The notes under the pieces are model-generated. The model was not told the origin of the DNA. It did no database searches and saw only the letters and a program-made list of their open reading frames with translations. DNA of 64,000 nucleotides from Candidatus Tectimicrobiota bacterium (GTDB taxonomy: Bacteria; JACPUC01), in assembly GCA_016192455.1 (NCBI GenBank), contig JACPUC010000008.1, positions 1 through 64,000 on the forward strand. The letters run 5' to 3'. Positions 4,028-51,093 of the stretch are shown piece after piece; positions within the stretch are counted from its first letter, which is position 1, and each line of letters opens with the position of its first letter. A program made the position numbers and the translations under genes.

Positions 4028-4792
4028 TCACTCCGTGGAAGTGCCCTGGAGGCGCTGCCGTCGGTGGCGAGCCAGCTTGCTTTCCGCCCGCAGCCGAAAC
4101 TCCACCACCTTCACCGCAGTATCGAGGAGCTTCCTCAGGGTGAGCTGCGAACTCCCCTGCCGCCGCTCCTCGAAGAGAATCGGCACCTCGCCGATGCGGA
4201 AGCCGAGCCGGGCGACGAGGTGCAGCACCTCCTCCACCACGGAGGGCCCAACCGAGGTGAGGCAATCCCACGGTATGGCGGCCAGCACCTCGTGGCGAAA
4301 GCACCTGTACCCGGAGGTGCAGTCCCGCACCGGCAGGCTCATGACGCCGCGCACATAGGCGTTGGCAAGTTTTGTGACCATCTGGCGGATGGGGGAGCGG
4401 CCGCGCTCTCCGCCGCCTTCAACCTGACGTGAGCCGATGGCGACGTCAAGCTCTCCGCGCCGCACCGGCGTCACCAGGGCCGGCAGGTGTCGGGGGTGGT
4501 GCGAGAAGTCGGCATCCATCTCCACCACGTAGGGAAAGGCCCGCTCGACGGACCAGCGGAAGCCGGCGATTCCCGCCCGACCTCTGCCGCGATCACTCGT
4601 GCGCAGCAGCAGCCGCACTGCTTCCCCCTGGCAGTGGCGGCGCACCACGTCCGCCGTTCCATCAGGTGAATCATCATCGACGACCAGAACCTGAACACCG
4701 GGGAGGAAGCCCTGAATGGCCTCGATGAGGGGCCGAATATTGGTTGCCTCATTGTAGGTTGGCAGGATGACGAGCGTATCCGCGTATAACAC
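4028..4792 (-). CDS. Polyprenol-monophosphomannose synthase-like GT2 (DPM1/Ppm1 family)
   Basis: ILPTYNEATNI, VVDDDSPDGT, EMDADFSH, IGSR, DCTSGYRCF and EVPILFEERRQGSS motifs. Confidence 0.85.
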   Translation of the reverse strand: MLYADTLVILPTYNEATNIRPLIEAIQGFLPGVQVLVVDDDSPDGTADVVRRHCQGEAVRLLLRTSDRGRGRAGIAGFRWSVERAFPYVVEMDADFSHHPRHLPALVTPVRRGELDVAIGSRQVEGGGERGRSPIRQMVTKLANAYVRGVMSLPVRDCTSGYRCFRHEVLAAIPWDCLTSVGPSVVEEVLHLVARLGFRIGEVPILFEERRQGSSQLTLRKLLDTAVKVVEFRLRAESKLARHRRQRLQGTSTE

Positions 4793-4889: not shown

Positions 4890-6005
4890 TTACCTCGTCA
4901 CTTCCCGCAGGAGCTTCTCAACAATCTCTTCCAAGCTCAGGGTGTTCATGCAGGTGATGGTCTTGTCGCAGGTGCGCCGGTAGCAAGGGGAGCAGGCGAT
5001 GCCGGCGACGATTTTACTCCCCCTGCCATAGAGCTCGATTTCCTGCTCGCAGGTGGGGCCGAAGAGCACCACAACGCGCCGCTGCAAGGCCACGGCAAGG
5101 TGCATGCCGAGGGAATCGGAGGTAAGCACCGTATGACAGCGGCCCAGGAGCGCCGCGAACTCGAGCAGGCTGTTGCCGGTGCCGGCGTCAATGACAGGCG
5201 CCGACACCGCCCGCAGGATATCCCGGTTCTTGTCGCGCTCGAGCGCCCCTCCCAGGAGGAGGATGGCGCTCTTCATGCCGACCAGGCGCCGCGACAGGAT
5301 TTCGATCAACTCCACCAAGGCGGAGGCCGGGAGTGACTTGTTGGCAAAGAGCTCGCCGCCGCCGGTGTTGATGCCGATGCAGCGCGTTTCGGCCTCGAGG
5401 CCCCAGCTCAGCCACTTCTCCTCCGCCCATCGCGCGACCTCCTGCGGCAGCGTGAGCATGAGGGGCTCGCCTGCAAACGTGAGACCCAGGGCCTCGAACG
5501 TGAGCGCTTGGTAGGTGCGCTCATTGCGGCGAAACTTGATGTCATCGGACATGCCAAGGGAAAAGAGCTCGTCGCTTTCCGGGTGCAAGGGGGCGATGTT
5601 GCCGCTGGGATGAAGTCCGAAGCCCGACTTTCGCGCCGCCCGAATCTTTGCCGCCAAGGCCGTGGCGCGCACCTCCTTGTCGAGGCAGATCAACCAATCG
5701 AAGTGCTCGACTTCCAGCCGCAGCACGGTCTCGAGATTCCATCCAAGGAGTCGGTCGATGGCCGGATTGTGGCGCAGGAGATCAAGCGCCGCTTCATCCG
5801 TCACCCAGGTGATCTGCGCCGAGGCGTCGAGCTTGCGCAGCGCCGGCAACAGAGGCGTCGTCCGCAGCACGTCTCCCAACGCCGCCAGCTTGATGATGAG
5901 GATGCGCCTACCAAACGGCTCATAATGCGGGCACCCCCCGCACAGCCGATTGAAGCGGCACGGCTTCTCACCAACGAAGTAGCGGCAATCGAGGTGCAGC
6001 TCCAT
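4890..6005 (-). CDS. GT9 glycosyltransferase (heptosyltransferase-like)
   Basis: ILIIKLAALGDVLRTTPLL and TSDSLGMHLAVAL...VVLFGPT motifs; C-terminal CSPC..C..C. Confidence 0.85.
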   Translation of the reverse strand: MELHLDCRYFVGEKPCRFNRLCGGCPHYEPFGRRILIIKLAALGDVLRTTPLLPALRKLDASAQITWVTDEAALDLLRHNPAIDRLLGWNLETVLRLEVEHFDWLICLDKEVRATALAAKIRAARKSGFGLHPSGNIAPLHPESDELFSLGMSDDIKFRRNERTYQALTFEALGLTFAGEPLMLTLPQEVARWAEEKWLSWGLEAETRCIGINTGGGELFANKSLPASALVELIEILSRRLVGMKSAILLLGGALERDKNRDILRAVSAPVIDAGTGNSLLEFAALLGRCHTVLTSDSLGMHLAVALQRRVVVLFGPTCEQEIELYGRGSKIVAGIACSPCYRRTCDKTITCMNTLSLEEIVEKLLREVTR

Positions 6006-6473: not shown

Positions 6474-9400
6474 CTACTGGGTGCGGGCCTGCGCGGCCGC
6501 GCAGTCACTGAACCCGAAGTCCGCCGAGCCAATGCAATTAGCCCCGGCGATGGGGTTCGTTGAAGAGACGGAGACGTTGGACACCAGGGCGGCGCCCGAG
6601 ATGTTCTCAGCCGGGAAGAGGGCGGCGAAGGACCGACTGATACGTGAGTTGGCCGGGATGCTGATGGCCGTGCCGGTAACCCGGCGCACACTCGCCGCGC
6701 CGCCGCCGGTGCCGGGGGAGGTGATCCACAACGAGGGCGTCACTTCCTCCGCGGCATCGTTCGGGTTGACGATGATGTAACGGTCGTTCAGCCCAACCAC
6801 GTAGGGGAGAGTGAGACGGTTGCCGGTGGCCGCGGCGCCGGAACTGATCAGCACGCGGGCATCCGGCGGGAAGCTCGCGATCGTCGCGGCAACGCCGCCT
6901 GACGACGGTGAACTGACGATCTTCACCCAGCCGTCGCTGCCGGCGGTGCCCTCGCAGAGGTCACTCACCAAGCTCGCGACGGTCTCGCCGCCGGCCAGGC
7001 TGGCGGTGCTGCAAGTCACGGCCGACGCGCCGTCCGGGTAGGCCGTCATGGTCAGCGTCTGCGTGGCGTCCCCCACCGCGCTATCGATCAGGGCGAAGGC
7101 CACCCAGTTGCTGGTGGTCTGGTAATTCGCCACCACCACCGTGGTGGGCGGCGGAATGACGGTGAAGGTGCCGTCCGTCACGGTCGGCGTGGCGACGCCG
7201 GAGAAGGTGGCGAAGTCGCCGATGGCGAGGTCAAGGGCGCTGTCGCCCGTGCTCGCCGCCGCGGCGACGGTGAAGGTGATGGTGAGGATCGTCCCACCGG
7301 AAGCCACGTTGATGCCCTCGGCCGAGGACAAGGCGAAGCGCACCGTGCCCGCGCTGAGCTCCGGCGTGCCCTGCAAGCCCGTGGCCACGGTGACGGAGGT
7401 GGCGTTGAGGACGTTGGCGTCGTAGGTCAGCGAGCCGTCGATGGCCAGCAACTGTTCCAGCGCGCTCGCCGAGGTGATGGCCACGGCTACGCCGGTGGCG
7501 CCCGCGGTGCCTTGGCCATTCCCCGCCACGATGGTCGGCGCGGCAGCCTGATCCTTGGTCGCTTCGCTCGCCGCCGTGGTGGTGGCGCCGGTGCTGCAGA
7601 AGCTCGGCAGCGCCAAGCCGGCGTTGAGACGGAGCATGCAGGCGGCATCGATGGCGCCGGCGCGCCCGTTGCCGTCCAGGTCAATCGCGGCGATCTGCTC
7701 TGCCGTCAGCGTTTCGCCGCGGGCGATTGCTCGAAGAACGTCCAGGGCGTCGTCCGAGCCCACCGAGCCGTCACCATCCAAGTCGCCGGAACGGGCCGCG
7801 CCGGTCACGACGGCCGCGATAACCGTCACCGGGATTGCGGTCGACTGGTTGGTGGTGGTATTCCTCGCCGTCACCGTCGTGGTTCCAACCGCCACGCCGG
7901 TGATGACGCCAGCCGAGGTCACCGAAGCGGTAGCGGCATTCGCGGAGGTGAAGATCGCCGGGCCGCCCCGAACGACCGTGATGGTTTGCGTGGCGCCAAC
8001 CTGGACCGAGACGGTCGTGGGAGAGACCACCACTTGGCCGACGGCCGCAACGCTCGCCGTCCCTTCAACCCGCAGTGCCGTATACGGGAAGGTGGTATCG
8101 CTAAACGGCGTCCGATCCGTATAGCTGACAGTCAACGTGTCGCCAACGCCGGCTTTGATCGAGGTGTTGGCGATGGTGGTGGTGCTGCTCAGCGCCATCG
8201 GGCCGGTGAAGATGCCCGTGGAGAGGCCGGTTTCCCGCACGGTGGCCGTCGTGCCGACCACGTCCGTCGTGGTGCGGACCGAGACGGTGCGCGACTGCGC
8301 CACATCCGACTTCGTGTTCTCGTCGAGATCAGTCACGGTGATGACCACGGTGTCACCGATGCTGAAGGAGGTCGTCGTGGCCTGCTTCTTCGCGCCGGCG
8401 GAGGCCGCGGTGGTGGTGCTGCCGCCGAGGACGGAGAGCGCGATCGTCGCATCCGTGAAGCGCGCCGTGGCGTTCGCCGAGGCGGTGGCGAGGGTGCCGC
8501 TGGCGTTCTTGGTGTCGGAGTAGGTGGCGGTGACGCCATCGCCGTTCTGCACGATCAGGCGATCGTTGGTGTCATCGCTGGTGGTGCCAACCACGGTGGT
8601 GCTGCCGTCGGTATTGACAATGGTCTTGAAGATGCCGGTGAAGATGCCCGTGGTGCCGCCGGTCTCCGTCAAGTTCACGGTGATGCCGGTGGCGTTGTCG
8701 GTGGTGCTCTTCACGCCGACGTTCACGGTATCCGAGCCGGTGGTGACGTTAAGGTCGGCATCCGTCACCGTCACCAGCACACTATCATCGCCCTCGGTTC
8801 CGGAAACGCCTGGAATGATCGTCTGATCGATGCTGATCGTTCCGGTGTTCGTGGGGATGGTGGCGGAGGCGGTGGAGGCCACGGCGGCGCTCGGCGACAG
8901 GTCACGGTACTTGACGGTGATGGTGTCGCCGGGGCTGACGTGCAGGATCGCCGACGCCGCCGACGTCCCATCCGTGCTGACGATGGTGCTGCCGGTCCTG
9001 AACCTCAGGGCGCCGGTGAAGATGCCGGTGGTGCCCCCCGTCTCCACGACGCGGATGTTCGGGTCGCAACCGGCAGGGGTCGTGGTACAGTCGGTGCCGG
9101 CGTCGGTGATCGTACTACCCGACTGCGTCGTGTTCTCCACGTCGGAAGTGCTGAAGGCGTAGAGCCCATTGGTCAGGAACGAGTTGGCCGAGGTGGTGGT
9201 GTCGAGGTCGAGGTCGACCAGGGTCACCTCGGCGGTGCTGGTGACGGTGTACTGCGTGTTGTTGAGGGAGACCACCCCCTGGTTCGAAGCCGCCGAGACG
9301 GTCCTCGTGCGGGTCGCGACGGCCAGCGCCGACGCCGTCGTCGTGCTGCTGGTTAAGTTACAACTCGTGGTGGCGCAGACATCACCGAACTCAACCGTGA

Positions 9401-11054
9401 TGTCCTTGCCGTCCAGGACGTCGATCAGGGTCGCGGTCTTGGAATCGGTGCTCGCCACCAGGACCGCAACGGTGACCAGGGCCGTGAACTCATTCGTGTT
9501 GATGCCGGTCTCGCGCAGCGTCGGGATCAACGTGTCGTTCACGTTATCCGCCGTCCGCAGCGTCACCGCCGTGGTCGTATCGGTGACCGAGCCGCTGAGG
9601 TTGAGGTCCTTATCCACCACGGTGATGGTGAGGACGCTGCCGTTGCGCACGGCGCTCGGCGTCACGGTGAGCGTGCCGGACTCGGTGAGGAACGTCGCGG
9701 TGGCCGTCCGCGTCGCGGCCGTCGTGCTCCCTGACTGCGCATCCCGGTACTGCGCGGTGTAGGTGAAGTTCAGGCCGGCGTCCACCGTGCTGTTGTCCGT
9801 CGTCCCTTCGTCGAAATCGAAGCCGACGCGCAGGGTGAAGACGTTGGTGGCAAGGCCGGTCTCGGTCAAGGTGACGTTCTCGAGCGAGTCGGAGGCGCCG
9901 CTGCCGGCGGTGATGATGCGCACCGAGCCATCCGTCGGCGTGCCGCTCGAACTGATATCGGTGGAGGTGTTGGTCACCGTCGTATCGATGGCGCTGGGGG
10001 TGCCGACATCGGTATCGGTCACGGTGACGAGCATGGTGTCGCCGTTCGAGTACTCCGACTTGTCGAGCGCGATCGTCCCCGCGCTTCCCAGGGTGAACGT
10101 CGCCGTCGTCGAGGTGGTGGCCGTAGTGCCGGCGTCAACGCGGTCACTGGCGCGGCTGATCGTGATCGTGTCGCCGCTGCTGCTCGCCTTCAACGCAAAG
10201 GTCGTCGGAGTACTGAGGCTCGTGTCCCCGCTGCGCTCGGTGCCGCTACCGCTGGTCACGAAGCCTTTGCCGGTGAAGACGCCGGTGTTGCTGGCCGTTT
10301 CATTGAGCACCTGGCTGACGCCGGAGCCGCCGAGAATCTGCGACTTGACCGTCACGGTGACCGTCTGCTGCGAGGTGCTGCTGGTGTTATCGTCCGGATC
10401 GTTGTAGACGATCGTCATGTTCGGCGTATCCGCCGACGAAGAGACGATCGCAGTGCTCGTCGCCGCGATCGTGCTCGTCGAGCCGGTAAAGGTGCCGGTG
10501 CTGGTTTTGACGTTGCGGGTGATCGAGGCGGTGTTGCCGCTCGGGTTCGTGTAGCTGATGGTGACGACTTCGGTTCCCGCCGTCACCTGCAGGGTAGTGG
10601 AAACCGTCAGGGCGCCGCTGCCGCCGCCGCAGCCGAGGCCGGCGCAGAACAATACGCCCCTGGCGGCCCGAAGGCCGGACGGGTCGTCGGTCAAATTCGT
10701 CAAGCTCCCGAACCGTGTGCCGTTCGTGTCGCAGTCAGTCGCTGCCGACGTGGAGTTACAGTTCGAGAGGACCTTCGTTACCGAAGCGGCAGTGCCGCTG
10801 GCGGTCACCGTGACTGTCAACGTCGCGCCGGTGGTCGTCGGTCCGGACCCCCGGGCGTCGCCATCGACGACCGAGATGTACATCGTGTCCGTGGTGACGT
10901 GCGGCGGCAGGTACTGCGACCGGTCCGTACTGATGACCGGCACGGTAGCCGCCAGCGCCGCGTCGCGCGGCACCACGGGCCCCGCCAGCAGCACGGCCAG
11001 CACCGTAAGCGCCGCCACCGCCAGCAACTGCGTTTTGTGTCGTACACTAGTCAT
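6474..11054 (-). CDS. Large secreted Ser/Thr-rich S-layer-like protein: repeated Ig-like ETGxxTGxFTG modules, Big_2-like, dockerin-like, cohesin-like and two C-terminal beta domains
   Basis: Start ATG 11054 with AAGGAGAG RBS and signal peptide (ALA-A); six ET(G/A)xxT(G/N)xFT repeats; DLDGDGSVGSDD...DLDGNGRAGAIDA twin EF-hand; LTYDANVL...GTVRFA...ILTITFTV...GDSALDL cohesin pattern. Confidence 0.85.
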   Translation of the reverse strand: MTSVRHKTQLLAVAALTVLAVLLAGPVVPRDAALAATVPVISTDRSQYLPPHVTTDTMYISVVDGDARGSGPTTTGATLTVTVTASGTAASVTKVLSNCNSTSAATDCDTNGTRFGSLTNLTDDPSGLRAARGVLFCAGLGCGGGSGALTVSTTLQVTAGTEVVTISYTNPSGNTASITRNVKTSTGTFTGSTSTIAATSTAIVSSSADTPNMTIVYNDPDDNTSSTSQQTVTVTVKSQILGGSGVSQVLNETASNTGVFTGKGFVTSGSGTERSGDTSLSTPTTFALKASSSGDTITISRASDRVDAGTTATTSTTATFTLGSAGTIALDKSEYSNGDTMLVTVTDTDVGTPSAIDTTVTNTSTDISSSGTPTDGSVRIITAGSGASDSLENVTLTETGLATNVFTLRVGFDFDEGTTDNSTVDAGLNFTYTAQYRDAQSGSTTAATRTATATFLTESGTLTVTPSAVRNGSVLTITVVDKDLNLSGSVTDTTTAVTLRTADNVNDTLIPTLRETGINTNEFTALVTVAVLVASTDSKTATLIDVLDGKDITVEFGDVCATTSCNLTSSTTTASALAVATRTRTVSAASNQGVVSLNNTQYTVTSTAEVTLVDLDLDTTTSANSFLTNGLYAFSTSDVENTTQSGSTITDAGTDCTTTPAGCDPNIRVVETGGTTGIFTGALRFRTGSTIVSTDGTSAASAILHVSPGDTITVKYRDLSPSAAVASTASATIPTNTGTISIDQTIIPGVSGTEGDDSVLVTVTDADLNVTTGSDTVNVGVKSTTDNATGITVNLTETGGTTGIFTGIFKTIVNTDGSTTVVGTTSDDTNDRLIVQNGDGVTATYSDTKNASGTLATASANATARFTDATIALSVLGGSTTTAASAGAKKQATTTSFSIGDTVVITVTDLDENTKSDVAQSRTVSVRTTTDVVGTTATVRETGLSTGIFTGPMALSSTTTIANTSIKAGVGDTLTVSYTDRTPFSDTTFPYTALRVEGTASVAAVGQVVVSPTTVSVQVGATQTITVVRGGPAIFTSANAATASVTSAGVITGVAVGTTTVTARNTTTNQSTAIPVTVIAAVVTGAARSGDLDGDGSVGSDDALDVLRAIARGETLTAEQIAAIDLDGNGRAGAIDAACMLRLNAGLALPSFCSTGATTTAASEATKDQAAAPTIVAGNGQGTAGATGVAVAITSASALEQLLAIDGSLTYDANVLNATSVTVATGLQGTPELSAGTVRFALSSAEGINVASGGTILTITFTVAAAASTGDSALDLAIGDFATFSGVATPTVTDGTFTVIPPPTTVVVANYQTTSNWVAFALIDSAVGDATQTLTMTAYPDGASAVTCSTASLAGGETVASLVSDLCEGTAGSDGWVKIVSSPSSGGVAATIASFPPDARVLISSGAAATGNRLTLPYVVGLNDRYIIVNPNDAAEEVTPSLWITSPGTGGGAASVRRVTGTAISIPANSRISRSFAALFPAENISGAALVSNVSVSSTNPIAGANCIGSADFGFSDCAAAQARTQ

Positions 11055-11693: not shown

Positions 11694-11722
11694 ATTCTAC
11701 CGCCAGTCCAGAGGACTGTCAA
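11694..11722 (-). promoter_or_regulatory. Strong sigma70 promoter for the S-layer-like gene
   Basis: TTGACA-N17-TAGAAT preceded by A-tracts (UP-element-like) in otherwise GC-rich DNA. Confidence 0.85.
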
Positions 11723-22493: not shown

Positions 22494-22500
22494 GCGGGCG

Positions 22501-36890: not shown

Positions 36891-36918
36891 ACTCTACCGC
36901 ACTGGCGGGGCATGTCAA
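36891..36918 (-). promoter_or_regulatory. sigma70-type promoter upstream of the wbqC-to-gspF run
   Basis: TTGACA-N16-TAGAGT. Confidence 0.55.
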
Positions 36919-37065
36919 GCAAAGCCCGCTGACGGCGGGGGCGAAGCGGCGCCGGTCGCAGGGGCAGCGCGCCTCCCCACGGCAGGGCAGGGCGGCTCGG
37001 CCCTCCGCCCGGGGCGCCGCCGAGAGCCTCGGGGAAGTGCTCGAAATGCTCACTGGAGGAGGCCT

Positions 37066-38088
37066 TCAGAACCGCCGACGCCGGGCCTGGCGCGCCTTGG
37101 ACCGATGCTCCACCCAGCAGGCCAGGTGGCCGGCGCTCATCCCCACGCCGCGGCAGAGGCTGCGCAGGAGGGCGACCGGGACGAACCAGAGAGCCTCCCG
37201 CGGCTTGCGGCGTTCGGCCAGCACCATGGCCGCCGGGAGCAGCAGGCCGATGGTAACGACGGCCGCCGGCAGGAGCCAGGGCTGCAGCGCGGAGAACCTC
37301 AGGCTTGCTATGCCGAGGCCGAGAAAGACAAGCGTGAGGTGGGGGTGGAGCAGGTCGAGCCAGCCGCTGTCATCGGCGCTGTGGAGGAGGCCCAGCCGGC
37401 CTTCCTTCTCCCACATGCGCCAGTAGGCGCGGCTACGGAAGTAGCCGTGCCGCACCTGACTCTGGAGGTAGGCGCCAAGATTTTCCTCCCAGCGGTGTCC
37501 GACCCGCAGGAGGGGATCAAGGCGGAGCTGGTACCCGCGCTGCACGATCGCCGCCGCCAGCATCGCGTCCGCGGCCGGGCCGCAGTCCTCGGGAAAGCCG
37601 CCGAGCGCCTCCAGGAGGGTGCGACGATAGGCGACGTTGCCGCTGTTGAGCACCTGTACCCGGGCTGGCAGGAGCCCCCGGCGCACCTCGAGCTCTCCCT
37701 GCAGGCAGCGCGCCAGCCCCGAGGCGGGATTCGCCAGCCGGTAGGAGCCTCCGACCGCCCCCACCTTCGGGGCGTCGAAGAGGTCAACCAGCCTCGCCAC
37801 CCAGTCCGGCCCCGGAAGGCAGCGGTCGGTCGTGAAGCCGATGATCTCCGCCCGGGCGGCGCGCCAGCCAGTGTTGCGGGCGCAGGCCGGCCCCCCGTTG
37901 GGGCGCGACAGGAGGGTGACGGGGTAGGAGCTGAGGAGCTTCCCCGTGCCGTCGATGGAGCCGTCGTCGACGAAGATGAGCTCCAAGCATGCCGCGGGGT
38001 AGTCCTGCGCCAGGCAGGCCTCGACGAGCTGCCGGACGCTCTCCGCTGCATTGTAGACCGGCACCACCACCGCGACACGCCGGTTCAT
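37066..38088 (-). CDS. GT2 glycosyltransferase with C-terminal TM segments
   Basis: VVVPVYNA, VDDGSID and GPACARNTG motifs; the DxD region is degenerate (FTTDRC). Confidence 0.85.
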   Translation of the reverse strand: MNRRVAVVVPVYNAAESVRQLVEACLAQDYPAACLELIFVDDGSIDGTGKLLSSYPVTLLSRPNGGPACARNTGWRAARAEIIGFTTDRCLPGPDWVARLVDLFDAPKVGAVGGSYRLANPASGLARCLQGELEVRRGLLPARVQVLNSGNVAYRRTLLEALGGFPEDCGPAADAMLAAAIVQRGYQLRLDPLLRVGHRWEENLGAYLQSQVRHGYFRSRAYWRMWEKEGRLGLLHSADDSGWLDLLHPHLTLVFLGLGIASLRFSALQPWLLPAAVVTIGLLLPAAMVLAERRKPREALWFVPVALLRSLCRGVGMSAGHLACWVEHRSKARQARRRRF

Positions 38089-43244: not shown

Positions 43245-45002
43245 CTACGGCCTGCCAGCGGCCGGCATTCGGCTCAGCCGCTCCACCATGGCCCGCAGCG
43301 CCGCGGCCTGTTCCTGCTTCGGGTCGAGGGCGAGGGAGCGGCGGAACTGCCGCAACGCGGCCGACGACGCGCCACGCTGCAGCAGGGCGATGCCGAGGTT
43401 CGCGGACGCCGCGGCCTGCTCGGGGACCGAGCGCAACGCCTGCTGGTAAGTGAGGATGGCGCGATCAACCAGACCCCGCTGCCGCAGCGCGATCCCCAGG
43501 TTGTTGAGGGTCTCGGCAGTCCGCGGCTCATAGCGCAGCCAGCGCAGGTAGAGGAGAACCGCCTTGTCGAGGTTTCCCGCCTGCCGCTGCAGGTTGCCGA
43601 TGTTATTGTACGGGTCGCGCTGGCGTGGATCAATGGACAAGGCGGTGAGCCAGGCGTGCCGGGCGGCGTCGGTGCGCCGGCGCTTTTGCAGCTCTTGGGC
43701 GAAGTTCAGGTGGCCGCGCACCCTCCCCGGCTCGCGCGCCGCCCCGAAGCGCCAGAGGGTGTAGTTCGACTCCCAGACGCGGGTCTGCCACACCGTCAGG
43801 ATCACGAAGCAGAGCAGTGCGGCGCCCACCAGCATGCGGACGGCCAGCCGGCGCCGGCGCCCCTCGCCCGCCGGCGCCCGGCTCCTCCCGACGCCGCGCG
43901 CCCGCGCCCCCCGCGCCGCACTCGTGAAGGCCGCCGCCAGGGCCAGGCTCCAGCCGGAGCTGGGGAGGTAGAGGTAGCGTGCGGCGACGGGACTATGGAG
44001 TGGCGCGAGGTTGCTGACCGGCAGGAGAGCAAGGAAGAACCAGAGGAGCCCCAGGCGCAGCGGCCCGGCTCCTGGCGCCCGCCACAGGCCCACCCCGATG
44101 AGCGCTGCCAGCGAGAGCGCCGCGAGGGCGCGCGGATCACGGAGACCCACGTGCAGCGACGTGCTATAATCAATGCTGGCGCCGACGGGCACGAGGCTGT
44201 GGAGGACGTAGAAGACCGCGATGCGCACGGCATTGAGCGCCATCGTCACGGCGCCATCCGCCGCGTCCGGCAGGGGCGGGGGCGTGGGGTTTTGCCGCCA
44301 GTCGAAGCGCACCAGCAGGTAGAGCCCCAGCTCCAGCGCGAGCGCCACCGCAAGCCGGCGCGGCGGTCGGCGCGCCGGGGGCTGGCGCCGCAGCACCAGG
44401 AGGGCGAGGACGAGCGGCGTCGCCAGCGCCATCTCCTTCGCCAGCAGCGCCAGGGCAAGGAAGACGAGCGCCGCGGGACCGCGCCCGCCCCAGCGGGGCC
44501 GCGCGGCGGGACCCCGGCGCGCCGCCGGCGGGGCCAGGATGCAGAGCATGGCGAGGAGACTGAACAAGGCAGCGAGGAGGTCTTCGCGGAAGGCCACGGC
44601 CGCAACGGCTTCCGACGCTGCCGGCAGCACCGCGAAGAAGGCCCCCGTCAGCAAGGCCAGCCCCAGGTCTCCAAACAGCGCGGCTGTCACCAGGACAAGG
44701 GTTGCCGAGGCGAGGGCGTGGAGGAGGACGTTCGTCAGGTGGAAGCCCGCTGGTCGGTCGCCCCAGAGCGCCCAGTCGAACATATAGCTGAGGGTGACGA
44801 GCGGCCGGTAGCTGACCTCGCCCGCCCGCGGGAAGTACCCCTGGCTGAGCAGCTCCGGCAAATGGGCAAGGCTGCGAATAAACGTGTTCTCGGTAACGAC
44901 CCCGCCATCGTCGCCGGTGAAGGCAAAGGAGAGGGTGACGGCATAGGTGAACCCCGCCAGCAGCAGGACGAGCGCGCTTCGCCACAGCCAGGCACGCCAC
45001 AT
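43245..45002 (-). CDS. TMTC-like GT-C membrane glycosyltransferase with TPRs (paralog 3)
   Basis: FTGDD, YRPLVTLSY, FHLTNVLLH, SEAV, LLAKE and RYLYLP motifs with NNLG TPRs; clearly similar to paralog 1. Confidence 0.85.
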   Translation of the reverse strand: MWRAWLWRSALVLLLAGFTYAVTLSFAFTGDDGGVVTENTFIRSLAHLPELLSQGYFPRAGEVSYRPLVTLSYMFDWALWGDRPAGFHLTNVLLHALASATLVLVTAALFGDLGLALLTGAFFAVLPAASEAVAAVAFREDLLAALFSLLAMLCILAPPAARRGPAARPRWGGRGPAALVFLALALLAKEMALATPLVLALLVLRRQPPARRPPRRLAVALALELGLYLLVRFDWRQNPTPPPLPDAADGAVTMALNAVRIAVFYVLHSLVPVGASIDYSTSLHVGLRDPRALAALSLAALIGVGLWRAPGAGPLRLGLLWFFLALLPVSNLAPLHSPVAARYLYLPSSGWSLALAAAFTSAARGARARGVGRSRAPAGEGRRRRLAVRMLVGAALLCFVILTVWQTRVWESNYTLWRFGAAREPGRVRGHLNFAQELQKRRRTDAARHAWLTALSIDPRQRDPYNNIGNLQRQAGNLDKAVLLYLRWLRYEPRTAETLNNLGIALRQRGLVDRAILTYQQALRSVPEQAAASANLGIALLQRGASSAALRQFRRSLALDPKQEQAAALRAMVERLSRMPAAGRP

Positions 45003-45189: not shown

Positions 45190-48100
45190 ATGTCGTTTCG
45201 CACCTCAGCCGATCACCTGCACAGAAACCGTGCCGCTTGGAGAGGCGGGGCCCTCCTCGGCTGCCGGCTCGTGGCGGCCTCGCTCCTTTGGTGCATGTCG
45301 TGGAGCGCCACGGCCGCGGCGCAGGGCGGCATCGCCTCTATTTCACCCAAGGGCGCGCTGCAGGGGCAAACCCTCACCGTTACGATTAACGCAACCGGCA
45401 CGAACTTCAACAGCACGACGAGCGTGCGCTTCAGCGGCGAGGGCGTCGGCGTCCTTTCCCTCACCGTTCAGAGCGCCACCCGGCTCAGCCTCCGGGTGCA
45501 GGTCGAGGCGACGGCGCCGCGCCAAAACCGCACCGTCACCGTCACCACCAACAGCATCTCCATCCCCCCCGGCAGCTTCATCATCGACGCCGCTTTCGAC
45601 GTGCTGACGGCGCTGAACGAGTACCGCGTCGACAACAGCGGCGTCGGCTCCTTTCTCCTCGAAGTGGTGCCGCTGGCGCGATTCCAACCCGAGCCTGCAA
45701 TCGAGTCGGTCACCGTCGATCTCCGGCAGTTCGGCGTCACCGATCTCCTCACCTTGCTCGACAACGGTCAGGGGGGCGACCGCGTCGCCGGCGACAAGAC
45801 CTACACCACCCGCGTGACGATCCCCGCCGCCACGACGGAGCAGATCTTTCAAGCGCCGATCCGCGTGCTCGAGTCTGTCCAGGATTCCACCTCCACCGGT
45901 TTTGCCCGGATTATCGTCGAAGAGGCGTCGGACCCCTTCATCCTGGGAATCACGCCGCAGGGGGCCATCCCCGGCGGCAGCATCACGATTCGCGGCAGCG
46001 GCTTCGATCGCACGCCCGCCAACAACGTCGTACGCCTCGGCGCCGAGACGCTGCAGGTCTCCGCGGTGACGGTGGAGGAGAGCTTCGTCCTCCTCACGGC
46101 TCTCCTGCCAGCCACCGCCGCCACCGGCAGCGTCACGGTCTCGCGCGGCAGGAAGACGAGCAATGCCGTGAGCTACGGCGTCGGCACGGCGTCGATCCTG
46201 GGCACGGTCCTGGCCACCGACACGGGCCAGCCCCTGCGGGGAGCCACCGTGAGCCTCACGCCGCTCGGTCGCAGCGCCGTGTCGGGAACAAGCGGCGACT
46301 ACCAGCTCCTCAACCTGCCGCGCGGCACCTACACGCTCACCGCCTCGCTCAGCAGCTTCCTGTCGGCGCAGGTGGAGAACGTGGCGGTCACCAGCGCCGG
46401 TGTGCAGACGATCGATTTCTCCCTGCCAAGGGTGACGACGGCCGCGGGAGGGATCAGCGGCCGGGTCCTGAACGCCGTCAGCGGCGCCGCCCTCCCCGCC
46501 ATCACGGTGCGCGCCGGGACCGCCTCGACCAGCACGGATGCCCAAGGCGCCTTTACGTTGACGTCGATCCCAGCCGGAGGGGCCACCGTCTCCGTCCAGG
46601 CAGCGGGCTTCGAGCCGTTCAGCACCACGGTCACGGTGCAGGCAGGCGGGGAGACGGCGCTCACCATCCGCCTGACGCCGACACCCACGGACGGCGGCGC
46701 GGGTGAGCGACGCGGGCGCATCGTCGGCATCGTCCTGAACGATCTCACCGGCGCCGCGGTGCCAGGAGCAAACGTGCAGGCCGGCGCCGCCGCCACCCAG
46801 GCTGACGCGGCGGGAGCGTTCACCCTGGAGAACCTCCCCGCCGGCGAGCTGGCCGTCGCGGCGCAGGCCGACGGCTTCACCCCCTTGACCACCGGCGTCA
46901 CCGTCCAGGCCGATCAGGAGACGGCGCTCACCATCCGCCTGACGCCCACGCCCACGGACGGCGGCGCGGGCGAGCAACGCGGCCGCATCGTCGGCGTGGT
47001 GCTGAATGACCGTAACGGCGCGGCGGTGCCAGGAGCCCGCGTGCAGGCCGGCGCCGCCACCCAGACCAACAGCGCCGGGGAATTCACCCTGGGGAACCTC
47101 CCCGCCGGCGAGCTGACCATCGCCGCGCAGGCCGACGGCTTCACCCCCTTGACCACCAGCGTCACCGTCCAGGCCGATCAGGAGACGGCGCTCACTATCC
47201 GCCTGACGCCGACCGGGCCGGCGCCGGGAACGCCGGAGGTGACGATCCAGCCCCAGGCGGTGCGGCGGCAGCCCTTCACCTTCCAGTTCACCCTCGCCGA
47301 TGCGGATGGCGTTGCCTCGCTCGACCTCGGCACGCTCCGCGTCACCTTCAACGGCGCGGAGGTTTCCGAGGCCGTGCGGGCGGGGATTGCGGCGCAGACC
47401 ATCAGCCAGCAGGCCATCTCCGCCGCGGCCACGACCTTCTCCGTGGCCGGGCTCACCCTGCCCCCCGGACGCGCGGCGATCAGCATCAGCGTCGCCGACA
47501 TGGAGGGAAGGGTCGGCGGCGCCGAGGTCCGCTACGCCATCACCGCGTTCCCCAGCCTGGCGCCCCAGGTTCCCGAAGTTGCGGCAACGCCGCTCGCGGA
47601 TGGCATCCAGATGCGCTGGGGCACGGTCGGCGATGCTCCCACCACCTTCCGGGTCTATGTCGGCCAGCCGACAGCCTTTGACAGCCCGGCCTTCACGCGC
47701 TCGCTGGAGCTGGAGGATGCCACCGAGGCGCGGCTCGGGGGCCTGGCGCAGGATCAGCTCAGCTTCTTCGCCGTCACGGCGCAGACCGCGGACGCCGCCG
47801 AAGGCTTGCGGATTCCCCAGGCGAAGCTCGTCCCCGTCCCTGCCGCGCAGCGCTCGAGCGTGAGCGCCCAGCAGGCTCGGCAGACGGCGCTGCAGGGCCT
47901 GGGCGGCCTTACCGTCACCATTCCCGCCAACGGGCTGCCTGCATCCGGAACCCTGACACTCAGCGCCATGCAGGAGCAGTCCCTGCCGCGCCCGCTGGCT
48001 GACTCCTTCGTGCGCCTCGTGGGCGGATTCGTCTACGACCTCAACCTGGAGGGGCAGTTCCTCACCCGCCTTGCCTCGCCGGCGATCCTCAGCCGCTTGG

Positions 48101-51093
48101 CGGCGGCGGGAGACCTGCGCAGTGGTGAAACCGTTGACAACCTCCTCTTCCTCCACTCGCTCGATGGGGCTGCCTGGCAAGGCCTCGCCACCACTCCGCC
48201 GGCGGCGATCGGCGGCGAGGTGCAGGCGGAGCTGCCGACGCTGGGGTTTATCGCCCTCGTCCATCCGCTGGCAACGCGGCAGACCCTCAGCAACGACGGG
48301 CACATCCTTGCCCTGTCGCCCACGAATGTCACCGGCACGGCGGTGAGTCGCCTGATCGAGGCATTCGGCAACGCCTTCGCGCGCCTGCGAGCCCTCCCCT
48401 TCTTCGGCGCCTTCCTCCCCACCATCGCGGAACCACCCGTGACGGTGCGGCTCGTTGCCGGCGCGCCGCCCGGCGGGGTGGTCCGGCCCCTCGTCTCTCT
48501 CAACTCCGGCGCGCCCGCCGCAGCCTACCTACTCGGCGCCTCGATCATCGAGATGCCACCGGACGCCGAGGCCGCCTCCCTCAGCTCCCTCGCCACGCGC
48601 ACCCTCTTTCAGCTCCTTCTCAACCGGCTCTTCGCCGCGCGGGGAGAGGATGAGGTCGTCCTGGCGGAGAACTACGTCTGGCTGCGCCAGGCCAGCGCCC
48701 TCCTCATCGAGAACCTGCTCGAGGACGCGAGCAATCGCTATCGGAGCCTGCTGACCTACCGCTTCCTGAACCACCCGCCCGCGGAGTGGGCGTACTCCGC
48801 CGAGGGGGCGGACGGGGCGCTCGTGCCGGAGCGCGGCCCCGCCCTCTTCCTCATGATGCTCGACGACCTCGCCCGTCTTGCGAACCACGGCACGGCTGCG
48901 GCGACGCCCGCGCGGGGCGTGGCGAAGCGCCAGCAGCTCGACGATTCAGGCACTGCAGCCGGCGAGGCGCCAGGCGACACGGCGATGCAGGCCGGCAGCG
49001 AAGAACCGCCGACACCGGCAGCGCCGGCCGTCGTGCGCGATGACGGGCTGCTCCTTCTCGATGCCGAGAGCTTCTCACTGCTCGCGCCCCTCCTCGCCCG
49101 CGCCGCGCAGAACGCCGATGGCGGCGTCCACACCTTGCGCGGCAGCTTCCTGTCGCGCAGCGCTCTGCCGGCGAGCATTGCGGCGGCCCTGCCGGCGGAG
49201 GCCGAGGGGATCATGGGCGACGCGGAGGGTCTGCTGCGCATCGCCCCGGCGCGACTCCCCGGCGCCGCCTCTCCGCTCCTGGAGACACTCTACCAGAACT
49301 TCAGCCCTCAGCTCGCAGCCTTCGATAACGTGCAGCAGGCCCTCATCCTGCTGGGGATCACCGGCTCGCCCCACCCCCTGCTCAACGACTTCGCCGAGCA
49401 GCTCTGGGCCGCCGGCGAAACGCGGGAGCTGCGCCAGGTGCGCGAGGCGAACGATGCCCCCCTGGGGCGCACGCTGGAGAGCCTGGGGCTTTTCGAACAG
49501 CCACCCTTGTCGATCTGGGCCGGCGTGGCCGAGCCGAATCGGCTGCTCCTGACCCCCGCCACGCTGCGTACGGGACTCCTGCTGACCACCGAGCCCCGCC
49601 CGGCTCGCACCTCCCGCGCCTGGCTCATGGCGCCCGACGCGCAGACCGCGGCGGGGGCCACGCTGGTGCTCGTCGATGAGGCGAACGCCGGGCTGCGAGG
49701 CTCGCTCTTCGGCCTGCGGGAAGCCTCGGACGGCACGCTGTCGGCGAAGTTCCTCGCCGCACTCTCGGCGACGGAGCCCGCGGTCGCGCCGGGGATCGGC
49801 CAGGCCGGGCCGCTCAATGCGGCGCCGGAGACCTACGCCGGGGCCATCCTCGTGCTGACGAATCCGGACGAGGCGCCTCGGACGCCTCCCCGCATCCCCC
49901 AGGTGCGCCTCCTGGCGCTCAGCCTCAGCGCTTTGCAGCCGAGCGAGCCCGCCGGCGATCAGCCGTTGACGATCACCGGCAGCGGCTTCATCAGCGAAAC
50001 CCCCGCCGCCTACCGCGTCGTCTTTCCGAACGGCCGCGTCGTCACGCCGGACAGTGTCAATCCCGCGCGGTCCAGCCTCATCGTGACGCCGCCTGTGGAG
50101 GTGGAGAGCGGCACCCTGCACCTCGAGCTCTTCGGGGTGCCGAGCAACCACCTAGCTTTCCTGGCCGCGACGACCCCTCTCACCGGCGTCGTGCGCGGCG
50201 CCGCGGGTGAGGTGCTGGCGGGGGCCACGGTGCGCCTCCCGGCCCTGGAGCGCGAGGCGACCACCGACGCGGAGGGGCGCTATCGCCTCGCCCTGCCGCG
50301 GGCCCTCGGAGCGGCCAACATCCGCTTGAGCGTGGAGGCGACCGCCGCGGGCTTCCTGATGGGAGAGCAGACGGTGCGCTTCACCGGCGCGCCGTTGGCG
50401 GTGGACTTTGAACTCTTCGCGGAGGGCATTGAGCCGGGCACCATCCCCTTGCGCGGCACGGTCCTCGACGCGGCCTTCCGGCCGATCCCCGGCGCCACCG
50501 TGGAAGTCCCGGTGCTGCAGCGCGTGGTGGCCACCGACGCCAACGGCGCCTACGAGTTCGGCATCCCCCAGGAGCTCGGCAGCGTCAACCTGCGCATCCA
50601 GATCATCGCCCGGGCGCCGTTCTTCGAGACCGTCACGCAGACCCTCACCATCATCCTCGAGCCCCTCACCGTCGACTTCATCCTCCCCATCTCCCCCTTC
50701 AGCAGGGTCCTCGACGCCGCGCGTCACCACCTTGGCGATGACGACTTCTCGACGTCGGTCAACACTGGGCTTACCCTGCCGTCGGAGGGGGCGACCTACA
50801 CGCTCAGCTTCGATTTGCGCGAGGTCATTTCCTTCACCGGGATCTTCCGGCAGGGAACAATCCTCCTCAATGTCGTTGGGGTGCAGCTCAACAACCCCAT
50901 CACCCTGAACGGCACGCTCCTCGGCGCGGTGGCGCAGAACGGCGACGGCATCGCCTTCTCGTTCCCCCCAACGCTCCTGCGCCGGGAAGGCAACATCCTG
51001 CAGATCACCTCCGTCTCCAGCAGCAGCATCGACTTCGTGCCCAACAACCTGGACGACTTCGAGTTCTCCAACCTGCGCCTCGATCTGCGCTGA
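45190..51093 (+). CDS. Very large secreted multi-domain surface protein (IPT/TIG, carboxypeptidase-regulatory-like repeats, FN3-like, degenerate peptidase-like domain)
   Basis: Signal peptide (AAA-Q), LLDNGQGGDRVAGDKTYT motif, ITIRGSGF/ITGSGF IPT motifs, about six G.V..GA.V..TD..G.F/Y repeats; start tentative. Confidence 0.85.
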   Translation: MSFRTSADHLHRNRAAWRGGALLGCRLVAASLLWCMSWSATAAAQGGIASISPKGALQGQTLTVTINATGTNFNSTTSVRFSGEGVGVLSLTVQSATRLSLRVQVEATAPRQNRTVTVTTNSISIPPGSFIIDAAFDVLTALNEYRVDNSGVGSFLLEVVPLARFQPEPAIESVTVDLRQFGVTDLLTLLDNGQGGDRVAGDKTYTTRVTIPAATTEQIFQAPIRVLESVQDSTSTGFARIIVEEASDPFILGITPQGAIPGGSITIRGSGFDRTPANNVVRLGAETLQVSAVTVEESFVLLTALLPATAATGSVTVSRGRKTSNAVSYGVGTASILGTVLATDTGQPLRGATVSLTPLGRSAVSGTSGDYQLLNLPRGTYTLTASLSSFLSAQVENVAVTSAGVQTIDFSLPRVTTAAGGISGRVLNAVSGAALPAITVRAGTASTSTDAQGAFTLTSIPAGGATVSVQAAGFEPFSTTVTVQAGGETALTIRLTPTPTDGGAGERRGRIVGIVLNDLTGAAVPGANVQAGAAATQADAAGAFTLENLPAGELAVAAQADGFTPLTTGVTVQADQETALTIRLTPTPTDGGAGEQRGRIVGVVLNDRNGAAVPGARVQAGAATQTNSAGEFTLGNLPAGELTIAAQADGFTPLTTSVTVQADQETALTIRLTPTGPAPGTPEVTIQPQAVRRQPFTFQFTLADADGVASLDLGTLRVTFNGAEVSEAVRAGIAAQTISQQAISAAATTFSVAGLTLPPGRAAISISVADMEGRVGGAEVRYAITAFPSLAPQVPEVAATPLADGIQMRWGTVGDAPTTFRVYVGQPTAFDSPAFTRSLELEDATEARLGGLAQDQLSFFAVTAQTADAAEGLRIPQAKLVPVPAAQRSSVSAQQARQTALQGLGGLTVTIPANGLPASGTLTLSAMQEQSLPRPLADSFVRLVGGFVYDLNLEGQFLTRLASPAILSRLAAAGDLRSGETVDNLLFLHSLDGAAWQGLATTPPAAIGGEVQAELPTLGFIALVHPLATRQTLSNDGHILALSPTNVTGTAVSRLIEAFGNAFARLRALPFFGAFLPTIAEPPVTVRLVAGAPPGGVVRPLVSLNSGAPAAAYLLGASIIEMPPDAEAASLSSLATRTLFQLLLNRLFAARGEDEVVLAENYVWLRQASALLIENLLEDASNRYRSLLTYRFLNHPPAEWAYSAEGADGALVPERGPALFLMMLDDLARLANHGTAAATPARGVAKRQQLDDSGTAAGEAPGDTAMQAGSEEPPTPAAPAVVRDDGLLLLDAESFSLLAPLLARAAQNADGGVHTLRGSFLSRSALPASIAAALPAEAEGIMGDAEGLLRIAPARLPGAASPLLETLYQNFSPQLAAFDNVQQALILLGITGSPHPLLNDFAEQLWAAGETRELRQVREANDAPLGRTLESLGLFEQPPLSIWAGVAEPNRLLLTPATLRTGLLLTTEPRPARTSRAWLMAPDAQTAAGATLVLVDEANAGLRGSLFGLREASDGTLSAKFLAALSATEPAVAPGIGQAGPLNAAPETYAGAILVLTNPDEAPRTPPRIPQVRLLALSLSALQPSEPAGDQPLTITGSGFISETPAAYRVVFPNGRVVTPDSVNPARSSLIVTPPVEVESGTLHLELFGVPSNHLAFLAATTPLTGVVRGAAGEVLAGATVRLPALEREATTDAEGRYRLALPRALGAANIRLSVEATAAGFLMGEQTVRFTGAPLAVDFELFAEGIEPGTIPLRGTVLDAAFRPIPGATVEVPVLQRVVATDANGAYEFGIPQELGSVNLRIQIIARAPFFETVTQTLTIILEPLTVDFILPISPFSRVLDAARHHLGDDDFSTSVNTGLTLPSEGATYTLSFDLREVISFTGIFRQGTILLNVVGVQLNNPITLNGTLLGAVAQNGDGIAFSFPPTLLRREGNILQITSVSSSSIDFVPNNLDDFEFSNLRLDLR
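46651..47214 (+). repeat. Intragenic tandem duplication (267 bp + 264 bp + partial third unit)
   Basis: GAGACGGCGCTCAC... recurs at 46651, 46918 and 47182, with long identical DNA stretches. Confidence 0.9.

Follow-up and report, generated by a model that had tools for sequence, protein, structure and literature searches.

TMTC-like GT-C proteins beside type II secretion genes in a groundwater bacterium: a candidate system for periplasmic protein O-glycosylation

The TMTC proteins are said, after Larsen et al. 2017, to mannosylate cadherins. They have been described as 11 transmembrane (TM) helices followed by lumenal tetratricopeptide repeats (TPR), with ArnT as the closest solved structure and with homologues also among prokaryotes (PMC7801869). 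Human TMEM260, as reported, is an 11-TM glycosyltransferase of the GT-C fold with a partly TPR C-terminus and O-mannosylates folded IPT/TIG domains (PMC10214176). TfpW of Pseudomonas aeruginosa, a protein of 646 aa, is described as crossing the membrane with 11 helices from a cytoplasmic N-terminus to a C-terminal TPR domain in the periplasm, and as carrying a DDX motif in its first periplasmic loop; its gene adjoins pilA, the group IV pilin is O-glycosylated with D-arabinofuranose from a polyprenyl-phosphate donor, and ArnT is given as the best structural template and OGT as the best match for the TPR (10.1101/2020.04.19.049825). Here we analyse the first 64 kb of the 334-kb contig JACPUC010000008.1 of a Candidatus Tectimicrobiota bacterium (the window, which starts at contig base 1), where three TMTC-like proteins are encoded together with a polyprenyl-phosphate sugar synthase-like protein, Ser/Thr-rich secreted proteins and the genes of a type II secretion system (T2SS).

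In streptococci, the pairs GtrB/PgtC2 and PgfS/PgfM1, each comprising an undecaprenyl-phosphate (Und-P)-sugar glycosyltransferase of family 2 (GT2) and a GT-C enzyme, are reported to glycosylate Ser/Thr-rich regions of exported proteins extracytoplasmically, and the pgf cluster also encodes adhesin substrates (PMC12041528). Protein O-glycosylation by a GT2 plus a GT-C is already established in bacteria by TfpW and the streptococcal systems, and the idea that a preliminary description advanced for the present locus is less new than was claimed there. Besides TfpW, no tested bacterial member of this layout turned up in the literature, which was searched mostly without subscription journals. We propose tentatively, at a probability of roughly 0.4, that the TMTC-like enzymes of the window O-glycosylate co-encoded Ser/Thr-rich secreted proteins in the periplasm, drawing on an Und-P-sugar donor.

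The host genome is a 4.46-Mb metagenome-assembled genome of ~70% GC that is ~88% complete. Window DNA was found in groundwater metagenomes, and the host is an uncultured groundwater bacterium. None of the 200 relatives offered was closer than the same domain, and the lineage seems to lack another representative in a collection of 199,900 species. Genes were picked by third-position GC and named with Pfam and NCBIfam; several of the longest open reading frames (ORFs) had over-extended starts, and signal peptides were judged after start-codon correction.

The window holds a ~50-kb, mostly co-directional cell-surface locus. Between positions 45002 and 4028 lie 29 minus-strand genes, in the order TMTC-like 3, a sulfatase-family gene, a gene for a small secreted protein, TMTC-like 2, a row of glycan genes, gspE-F-G-H-I-J-K-L-M-C-D and TMTC-like 1, followed by the genes for a CarboxypepD_reg repeat protein, a Ser/Thr-rich protein of 1526 aa, a GT9-family glycosyltransferase and a GT2 resembling dolichol-phosphate mannose synthase (DPMS). 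Divergent from TMTC-like 3 are the gene for a ~1967-aa TIG/CarboxypepD_reg protein, then a CHRD-protein gene and a second DegT gene. The contig start encodes an ABC-2 permease and an M10 protease with CarboxypepD_reg domains, while the genes at 54-64 kb are housekeeping genes unrelated to the surface locus. The co-location of donor-synthase-like, transferase-like and Ser/Thr-rich proteins with a T2SS, on which the preliminary description had built, is therefore found in one co-directional locus, but a general coupling to the T2SS is not borne out.

Three TMTC-like proteins of a large bacterial family

14191..16032, minus strand: TMTC-like 1, 613 aa; FTYDD, SYRP, SKE, ERYLY; TPR at residues 495-594
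38185..40548, minus strand: TMTC-like 2, 787 aa from M21; FHLDD, SKETALTLP, EHRLY; long TPR array
43245..45002, minus strand: TMTC-like 3, 585 aa from M46; FTGDD, SYRP, AKE, ARYLY

As first described, the window encodes three TMTC-like paralogs, each with a DD motif after the first helix and with TPR. In the translations, DD directly follows the first hydrophobic helix in all three, and the TPR families of Pfam match in their C-terminal parts only. The proteins are mutual paralogs (BLASTP, E 2e-32 and 8e-21), and their TPR parts match OGT, SPY and CTPR structures. Because the number of membrane helices is odd, the TPR array is expected to be extracytoplasmic.

The family alignments conserve F29, D32, D33, R67, P68, H89, H126, P127, K184, E185 and Y348 and give the consensus FxxDD, YRP, GRxDLL, SKExAxxLP, D-Y and AERYLYLP; across the 13 paralogs of the genome, D32 never varies and D33 is present in 90% or more. 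The motifs tabulated for TMTCs are DD, SHKSYRP, RxD, KE(T/Q)xxT, DW, PxxP and ERxxY (Eisenhaber et al. 2021, PMC7801869, Table 4), and the conserved residues of the window family correspond to M1 DD, M2 SYRP, M4 KE(T/Q)xxT and M7 ERxxY. TMTC-like 1 has SYRP, SKEMALS and ERYLY, and TMTC-like 3 has SYRP, AKEMALA and ARYLY, while TMTC-like 2 carries SKETALT, an exact KETxxT, and EHRLY. Elsewhere in the genome, the paralog on contig C6 (G000:C6, L004:9269-10603) has D-S in place of DD, and in several paralogs K-E has lost its E (AKS, SKT, AKP). Judged from these residues, some of the genome paralogs may be catalytically altered.

The identification with TMTC thus stands for the architecture and, in part, for the motifs, and fails for the PF08409 match and the assignment to family GT105: the window proteins resemble TMTC in architecture and are not filed as GT105 members. 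No match to the Pfam families PMT, PMT_2 or MIR, or to PF11028, was detected in them. Among the 120 homologs listed, PF08409 occurs in 3 and PF13231 (PMT_2) in 20, and one family homolog has a weak TMEM260-like match (E 0.0079). A eukaryotic DUF1736 cluster is an ESM Atlas feature neighbour (0.95). Searches against PDB chains by sequence, with full proteins and with a 26-row alignment, returned TPR matches only.

An AlphaFold2 model of TMTC-like 1, built from a 66-sequence alignment, reached a predicted local distance difference test score (pLDDT) of 92.4 and consists of ~11 membrane helices up to residue 411 and then a TPR solenoid. When the membrane part was compared with 48,161 chains by VIA-align, the top match was Pmt1-Pmt2 (6p2r_B, Z 20.8, root-mean-square deviation 4.3, 354 residues aligned), followed by AglB (3waj, Z 20.7), STT3 (6s7t, Z 20.2), Pmt4 (Z 18.9), ArnT (5f15, Z 18.5), ALG12 (Z 17.9) and PglB (Z 17.4); these GT-C alignments, with Z 17-21 over 320-354 residues, are effectively tied. 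Foldseek with the full-length model was swamped by TPR proteins, the only matches returned, and the N-domain was therefore folded and searched alone (pLDDT 86.5). The first match was then ArnT (5ezm, E 3.3e-4), followed in order by AglB, STT3, PglB, Pmt4, AftB and AftD (E 3e-4 to 2e-2). No TMEM260 structure was among the VIA-align or Foldseek matches. By these models the GT-C fold of TMTC-like 1 is secure, whereas the modelled fold does not separate the protein, lipid or glycan acceptor classes (PMT, oligosaccharyltransferase (OST), ArnT). The structure comparison that had been suggested hence confirmed the fold without deciding whether the proteins group with lipid A- or lipopolysaccharide (LPS)-modifying GT-Cs.

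The three paralogs noted at the outset are those of the window; the genome encodes 13 full-length copies, which are scattered. A rough Poisson estimate for finding 3 of the 13 copies within 31 kb anywhere in the 4.46-Mb genome, as seen here, is ~0.02. In a FastTree phylogeny of 129 N-domains, the 13 genome paralogs have to be placed independently at least 3 to 6 times. TMTC-like 1 forms a group (support 100) with P0004 and P0005, which come from other samples, TMTC-like 3 lies loosely near this group, and TMTC-like 2 is found elsewhere with the C6 copy on long branches. As they belong to different subclades, the three window copies are not tandem or recent duplicates. A separate tandem trio of TMTC-like paralogs (G000:C7:254688-262564, L005) stands behind a multihaem cytochrome gene (NapC/NirT, cytochrome c7) and forms its own clade on the tree.

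The family is very large. Out of 1.84 billion, an N-domain profile of the 13 paralogs retrieved 66,683 cluster representatives at E<=1e-30, a number that rises to 109,541 at E<=1e-10 and to 138,536 at E<=1e-3. Of 200 genomes sampled, 78 have members, frequently in many copies. A related-locus search with one protein gave only distant or TPR-only loci in genome contigs and matches of <=35% identity in metagenome contigs.

Candidate donor synthase, secreted proteins and secretion machinery

4028..4792, minus strand: GT2, polyprenyl-phosphate sugar synthase-like (DPMS/ArnC/PpgS type), 254 aa; Pfam Glycos_transf_2, 1.8e-25

The GT2 that had been likened to polyprenol-phosphate-mannose synthases does resemble them: its best solved relative is dolichol-phosphate mannose synthase of Pyrococcus (5mlz, E 1.3e-24), followed by ArnC (E ~4e-7). 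Its NCBIfam matches (AglJ, PpgS, Dol-P-hexose transferase and ArnC) are far under the cut-offs; a weak match to PgfS (E 4.8e-8) is also under its cut-off. Neither a membrane helix nor a close paralog in the genome was found for it. Homologs of this GT2 occur in the flanks of 4 of the 21 family loci from other organisms (L020, L051, L054 and L062); at L020, the homolog (45% identity) is followed by two family genes.

The secreted proteins of the locus are the following.

1073..4000, plus strand: secreted M10 (matrixin) metalloprotease with three CarboxypepD_reg beta-sandwich domains (Pfam); signal-peptide-like segment, true start probably further in
6474..11054, minus strand: secreted protein of 1526 aa with a C-terminal dockerin (Dockerin_1, 9e-7); signal peptide from M80 of the long ORF
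11882..13528 (longest ORF to 14071), minus strand: secreted protein with three CarboxypepD_reg domains (Pfam 4.6e-46), 548 aa by the database call; signal peptide; entry P0179
40809..41417, minus strand: secreted protein of 202 aa without a family; signal peptide, no Pfam or NCBIfam match, no genome paralog
45190..51093, plus strand: secreted protein of ~1967 aa with TIG/IPT and at least 6 CarboxypepD_reg domains (Pfam); signal peptide from M82
51125..52624, plus strand: secreted CHRD-domain protein (Pfam CHRD 1.6e-10); signal peptide from M81

All the large locus proteins carry Sec-type signal peptides after start correction. The 1526-aa protein, whose gene lies 7.7 kb from TMTC-like 1, contains 29.5% Ser+Thr (longest ORF) and ranks first among the 1693 proteins of at least 300 aa in a genome with a mean of 10.1% and a 95th percentile of 13.6%. 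The long ORFs of the 548-aa and ~1967-aa proteins (729 and 2048 aa) reach 15.5% and 16.4%, respectively. By eye, the 1526-aa protein is built from ~110-aa modules with recurring VTVTDxDxN and ETGxxTGxFTG, while its self-BLAST gave no internal repeats at E<=1e-3; an ESM Atlas entry identical to the 1526-aa form carries weak Big_2/dockerin leads (0.76). Pfam assigns beta-sandwich domains (CarboxypepD_reg, TIG) to three locus proteins, and we infer such a fold for the 1526-aa protein. The description of these proteins as Ser/Thr-rich, secreted and beta-sandwich therefore holds on the first two counts and, on the third, directly for the three proteins.

The S-layer glycoprotein family of Kuenenia Kustd1514 (NF052345) is matched in part by three of the locus proteins, at 66 (1526-aa protein), 87 and 129 (~1967-aa protein) bits against a cut-off of 1400; they share its domain types and are not members of the family. 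Kustd1514 itself is reported as a heavily O-glycosylated S-layer protein (PMC5088730). The M10 protease matches in part a family of myxosortase-dependent metalloproteases (53.7 bits, cut-off 250). About 640 nt upstream of the 1526-aa gene there is a sigma-70-like promoter match (TTGACA-17-TAGAAT, 11/12, 11694..11722, minus strand), a lead only, as the consensus scan gave 2 sites where 1.1 were expected; such a promoter would suit a surface-protein gene that is expressed strongly from a long leader. In another part of the genome (G000:C3:195000-237000), giant Ser/Thr-rich proteins (20-24% Ser+Thr) are encoded with long TPR proteins and a 1060-aa distant relative of the DPMS-like GT2, and this region may be another glycoprotein locus.

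The S-layers of Aeromonas are exported by T2SS-like components. In the window, 11 gsp genes (D, C, M, L, K, J, I, H, G, F and E by Pfam) occupy 16232-29590.

16232..19261 (long ORF to 19375), minus strand: GspD secretin (Pfam Secretin, Secretin_N, GspD N0); the database gene call is shorter, 726 aa
19372..20139, minus strand: GspC-like protein, weak match (Pfam T2SSC E 3.7e-4, 20.8 bits, cut-off 27)
20355..20939, minus strand: GspM (Pfam T2SSM_b 1.6e-12)
21015..22580, minus strand: GspL-like protein with PilM/PilN-type domains (Pfam PilN 4e-12, PilM_2 1.3e-5)
22501..23688, minus strand: GspK minor pseudopilin (Pfam T2SSK_1st 2.7e-14)
23685..24515, minus strand: GspJ minor pseudopilin, start over-extended (Pfam T2SSJ 8e-7, N_methyl)
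24439..24969, minus strand: GspI-like minor pseudopilin (Pfam N_methyl 4e-6)
24966..25877, minus strand: GspH minor pseudopilin, start over-extended (Pfam GspH 2.9e-6, N_methyl)
25804..26214, minus strand: GspG major pseudopilin (Pfam T2SSG 9.6e-23)
26613..27833, minus strand: GspF platform protein (Pfam T2SSF 1.8e-60)
27911..29590, minus strand: GspE ATPase (Pfam T2SSE 5.2e-146)

With a prepilin peptidase encoded outside the cluster (C15:19 kb), the component set is complete by Pfam, GspC being weak. GspK, L, M and G have no paralogs in the genome and the other secretins and ATPases resemble type IV pilus parts; this is therefore the only T2SS of the 88%-complete genome. The near-complete gsp cluster of the preliminary description is thus real, but its designation as 'dedicated' is not supported, because no second T2SS was found in the genome. 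GspD has a lipobox, LSGC (residues 57-60 of the long ORF), and a low-complexity linker of ~330 aa rich in Ala, Pro and Glu before the N0 domain; its orthologs P0124 and P0125 also have lipoboxes and long linkers, and from these features GspD is probably a lipoprotein. The pseudopilins are not Ser/Thr-rich.

Only 199 nt without a terminator-like site separate gspD from TMTC-like 1 on the same strand, and gspG lies ~10 kb from TMTC-like 1. The ortholog of TMTC-like 1, P0005 (57% identity), and that of GspD, P0124 (69% identity), share their source and the length of their contig (14,303 nt), which we infer to be one contig. A relative of ~90% nucleotide identity from two other groundwater studies has contigs colinear with the window, and its 3,989-nt contig spans the region upstream of the repeat-protein gene, TMTC-like 1 and the 3' part of gspD. 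The neighbourhood of gspD and TMTC-like 1 is kept in the closest relatives available.

Protein O-glycosylation weighed against other explanations

In the scheme that we propose, the DPMS-like GT2 would, in the cytoplasm, charge undecaprenyl phosphate with a single sugar taken from a nucleotide sugar, as its family suggests, and the lipid-linked sugar would be flipped to the periplasmic face. The three TMTC-like enzymes, with DD in the first periplasmic loop, would then attach the sugar to hydroxyl groups of Ser/Thr in Sec-exported proteins of the locus, the 1526-aa protein being the leading candidate acceptor and the CarboxypepD_reg/TIG repeat proteins further candidates, while the periplasmic TPR arm would hold the acceptor. 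Transfer, acceptors and the role of the TPR are all assigned by analogy with the only characterized enzymes of this layout, TMTC, TMEM260 and TfpW, all of which act on proteins. The preliminary description is thus plausible in the core of its mechanism, whereas mannose as the sugar and recognition of folded Ig domains by the TPR, which it also put forward, gained no support. Passage of the glycoproteins across the outer membrane through the single T2SS would follow; this is the weakest step, and we consider it doubtful. The WecA-initiated gene set would build a separate amino-sugar glycan linked to undecaprenyl pyrophosphate (Und-PP).

Several observations weigh against this proposal. The N-terminal 438-461 residues of the TMTC-like proteins have no Pfam match even at E<=10, PF08409 (TMTC_DUF1736) matches none of the 13 genome paralogs (best 12 bits, E 0.8), and an N-domain profile found nothing among solved chains at E<=10, ArnT chains included. 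Among the motifs, the M5 DW is missing from the window proteins (D-L, D-Y and D-A instead), TMTC-like 2 lacks YRP and TMTC-like 3 has A for the E of ERxxY. ArnT, which modifies a lipid or glycan, ranks level with protein transferases in the fold searches, and the locus is equipped for a complete lipid-linked glycan, an alternative target for GT-C decoration. No GtrA-type flippase (PF04138) was found in the 88%-complete genome. On the acceptor side, a near-length search for the 548-aa repeat protein gave no ortholog beyond the near relative, and the genome encodes at least 10 further proteins with more than 20% Ser+Thr in places where no paralog is near. The paralogs that lie outside the window, ten in number, adjoin genes for EF-G, a tRNA synthetase, PFK, the pentose-phosphate pathway, ABC transporters, def/fmt and a multihaem cytochrome; 10 of the 13 copies thus sit in housekeeping contexts without a secreted Ser/Thr-rich neighbour, and only two of the loci concerned have any glycosyltransferase nearby.

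Nor does the linkage to the T2SS extend to other organisms. We surveyed 60 GspD loci (46 of them at least 15 kb long) from 51 of the 52 sampled genomes in which family members and GspD N0 domains occur together, and a family member was present in only one of these loci, at a distance of 13 kb and on the opposite strand. Conversely, T2SS genes were found in 0 of the 21 family loci from other organisms. The proposed synteny survey therefore upholds the pairing of gspD with TMTC-like 1 in close relatives and fails elsewhere: the linkage is not general beyond the lineage, and the idea of a T2SS-coupled system is weak. A GspD N0 domain is present in 52 of the 78 genomes that have family members, compared with 46 of the 122 without; because the genes are almost never adjacent, this co-occurrence probably reflects what larger diderm genomes have in common and not a functional link.

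The strongest rival concerns the remaining surface genes.

142..1155, minus strand: ABC-2 type transporter permease, Wzm-like (Pfam ABC2_membrane 1e-18)
4890..6005, minus strand: GT9-family glycosyltransferase (heptosyltransferase family; Pfam Glyco_transf_9 3.6e-13; best solved relatives LPS heptosyltransferases)
29696..31519, minus strand: WecA/MraY-type polyprenyl-phosphate sugar-1-phosphate transferase with CoA_binding_3 (Pfam Glycos_transf_4 7.3e-36, CoA_binding_3 1.4e-17; NCBIfam WecA under cut-off)
31520..32947, minus strand: GT4-family (GT-B) glycosyltransferase (Pfam Glyco_trans_1_4 8e-26)
32941..33663, minus strand: 240-aa protein with two hydrophobic segments (hydropathy; no Pfam or NCBIfam match)
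33673..34761, minus strand: GT-B glycosyltransferase (Pfam Glyco_trans_1_2 1e-11)
34909..35967, minus strand: DegT-type sugar aminotransferase (Pfam 4.8e-81)
36004..37053, minus strand: WbqC-family protein, known from amino-sugar modification clusters (Pfam WbqC 7e-72)
37066..38088, minus strand: second GT2 glycosyltransferase (Pfam 7.8e-23)
52764..53945, minus strand: second DegT-type sugar aminotransferase, the last glycan gene before housekeeping (Pfam 2e-110)

With this equipment, the DPMS-like GT2 and the TMTC-like GT-Cs could form a Gtr/Arn-type system that adds periplasmic side-branch sugars to the Und-PP glycan, to LPS core/lipid A or to an exopolysaccharide, the TPR arm binding the polymer or assembly partners. 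The WecA/MraY-type fusion protein, which by its domains would initiate an Und-PP-linked glycan, the GT4s, the GT2, both DegT proteins, WbqC, GT9 and the ABC-2 permease all fit such a system, GT2 plus GT-C decoration modules are common, ArnT is the top Foldseek match (E 3.3e-4), and ligation or polymerisation of the glycan could fall to three Wzy_C proteins that are encoded outside the window. TPR proteins handle polysaccharides too, AlgK being an example (in the reference list of PMC12475490). On the other hand, the characterized enzymes with this exact layout act on proteins, 13 paralogs are many for one or two glycans, and the missing GtrA counts here as well. We also know of no glycan- or lipid-modifying GT-C (ArnT, GtrC or YfhO type) that has been described with a TPR arm, and overall we place decoration of a glycan on the unlikely side.

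Two observations on these genes stand apart. The fusion at 29696..31519 is unusual in that CoA_binding_3 is C-terminal in a WecA/MraY-type protein, a domain that normally lies on the N-terminal side of WbaP/WcaJ-type initiators. The partner ATPase of the Wzm-like permease may sit off the assembly, because the window begins at contig base 1. A role of GT9 as a TibC-like protein heptosyltransferase was considered and dropped, its solved relatives being LPS heptosyltransferases only.

Under the second alternative, the TMTC-like enzymes glycosylate mainly proteins encoded elsewhere, and the T2SS is a general machine in a region of envelope biogenesis, so that the genes are neighbours without coupling. 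The uniqueness of the T2SS in the genome, the unrelated contexts of 10 of the 13 paralogs, the near-absence of family members from GspD loci (1/60 with a member within about 10 kb, in 51 other genomes) and of T2SS genes from family loci (0/21), and the Ser/Thr-rich proteins far from any paralog all speak for it. Yet gspD and TMTC-like 1 stay adjacent at 57-69% protein identity, three non-tandem paralogs lie within 31 kb, and the same-strand gap of 199 nt contains no terminator-like site; weighing these, we judge an uncoupled neighbourhood unlikely.

One TMTC-like protein, most likely number 2, might instead move a finished Und-PP oligosaccharide to protein en bloc, in place of a PglL/PglB-type enzyme. 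The absence of a PglB/PglL/WaaL-like transferase, which had been remarked on before, was confirmed: no Wzy_C, PglL, WaaL or STT3 family was detected among the 40 window ORFs scanned. TMTC-like 2 ends the row from WecA to the second GT2, 97 nt from the last glycan gene, AglB, STT3 and PglB score level with the PMTs, and TfpW is described both as a glycosyltransferase and as an oligosaccharyltransferase (10.1101/2020.04.19.049825). Against such a role, the conserved K/E and ERxxY are assigned to a monophosphate donor in the TMTC models as reported (PMC7801869), the window encodes no Wzx flippase, and the Wzy_C proteins elsewhere in the genome could serve; en-bloc transfer seems improbable.

Finally, the secretion of slime by Myxococcus and cyanobacteria is reported to require GspD secretins (PMC12475490) and the glycan genes abut gspE, but export of a non-protein exopolymer ('slime') made by these genes, handled by the TMTC-like proteins, is very improbable for a machine with the full pseudopilus set (G-K) typical of protein T2SSs in a locus that encodes many large Sec-exported proteins, the more so as the nature of myxobacterial slime is itself given as unsettled (PMC12475490).

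We therefore retain O-glycosylation of secreted proteins as a working proposal and value the locus as a well-equipped place in which to test a very large family. The TMTC-like N-domain defines one of the largest functionally uncharacterized bacterial glycosyltransferase families, and the locus brings together three transferases of divergent sequence, a candidate acceptor of extreme Ser/Thr content and a protein that is likely to be the donor synthase. If the proposal is true, protein O-glycosylation by polyprenyl-phosphate sugars and GT-Cs would extend to Gram-negative surface proteins, and the whole TMTC-like family would gain a functional handle. A bolder version, which we regard as a long shot, would make TMTC-like 1 a built-in accessory of the T2SS, with periplasmic sugars on Ser/Thr-rich repeat proteins acting as a tag or maturation checkpoint read before export; substrate recognition by the T2SS, a long-standing question, would then depend on glycans. 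The kept adjacency of gspD and TMTC-like 1 and the short gap between them would agree with this version, and the rarity of the pairing overall (1 of 60 GspD loci) speaks against it.

One further gene of the locus lies between TMTC-like 2 and 3.

41457..43115, minus strand: sulfatase/alkaline-phosphatase-superfamily protein with an N-terminal anchor (Pfam Sulfatase 5e-37; S1 sulfatases in PDB)

Its position is echoed in an unrelated genome (L062, G018:C60:3800-20071), where genes for a GT2, a TMTC-like protein and a sulfatase-family protein occur within ~6 kb.

Comparison with known systems

With TMTC1-4 (GT105), the window proteins share the 11 TM helices and TPR, the motif M1 DD and ArnT as the closest solved structure; M2 SYRP, M3 RxD/E, M4 and M7 are recognizable, M2, M4 and M7 being kept in part. 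They differ in having no PF08409 match and no DW; cadherin domains are absent, and the donor here would be an undecaprenyl-phosphate sugar and not dolichol-phosphate mannose. TMEM260 offers a parallel on the acceptor side, as the ~1967-aa window protein has a TIG domain. The PMT/POMT enzymes (GT39) are alike in fold only, their PMT and MIR domains not being matched in the window proteins.

ArnT (GT83) is the best Foldseek match of the N-domain and ArnC is matched by the window GT2, but ArnT acts on lipid A and has no TPR arm, whereas the window proteins carry a TPR array; its motif, moreover, is given as DE, not DD (PMC7801869). The three-component GtrA/GtrB/GtrC scheme has counterparts in the window for its GT2 and its GT-C, but no GtrA was found in the 88%-complete genome. 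The streptococcal GtrB/PgtC2 and Pgf (PgfS, PgfM1/M2) systems differ in their YfhO-type GT-Cs without TPR, their Gram-positive setting, their disordered-tail targets and the lack of a T2SS. With TfpW, compared by its description alone, the window proteins share both the layout and the best templates; the difference lies in the company the genes keep, TfpW adjoining pilA and the window genes adjoining gspD, the glycan genes and those of giant repeat proteins.

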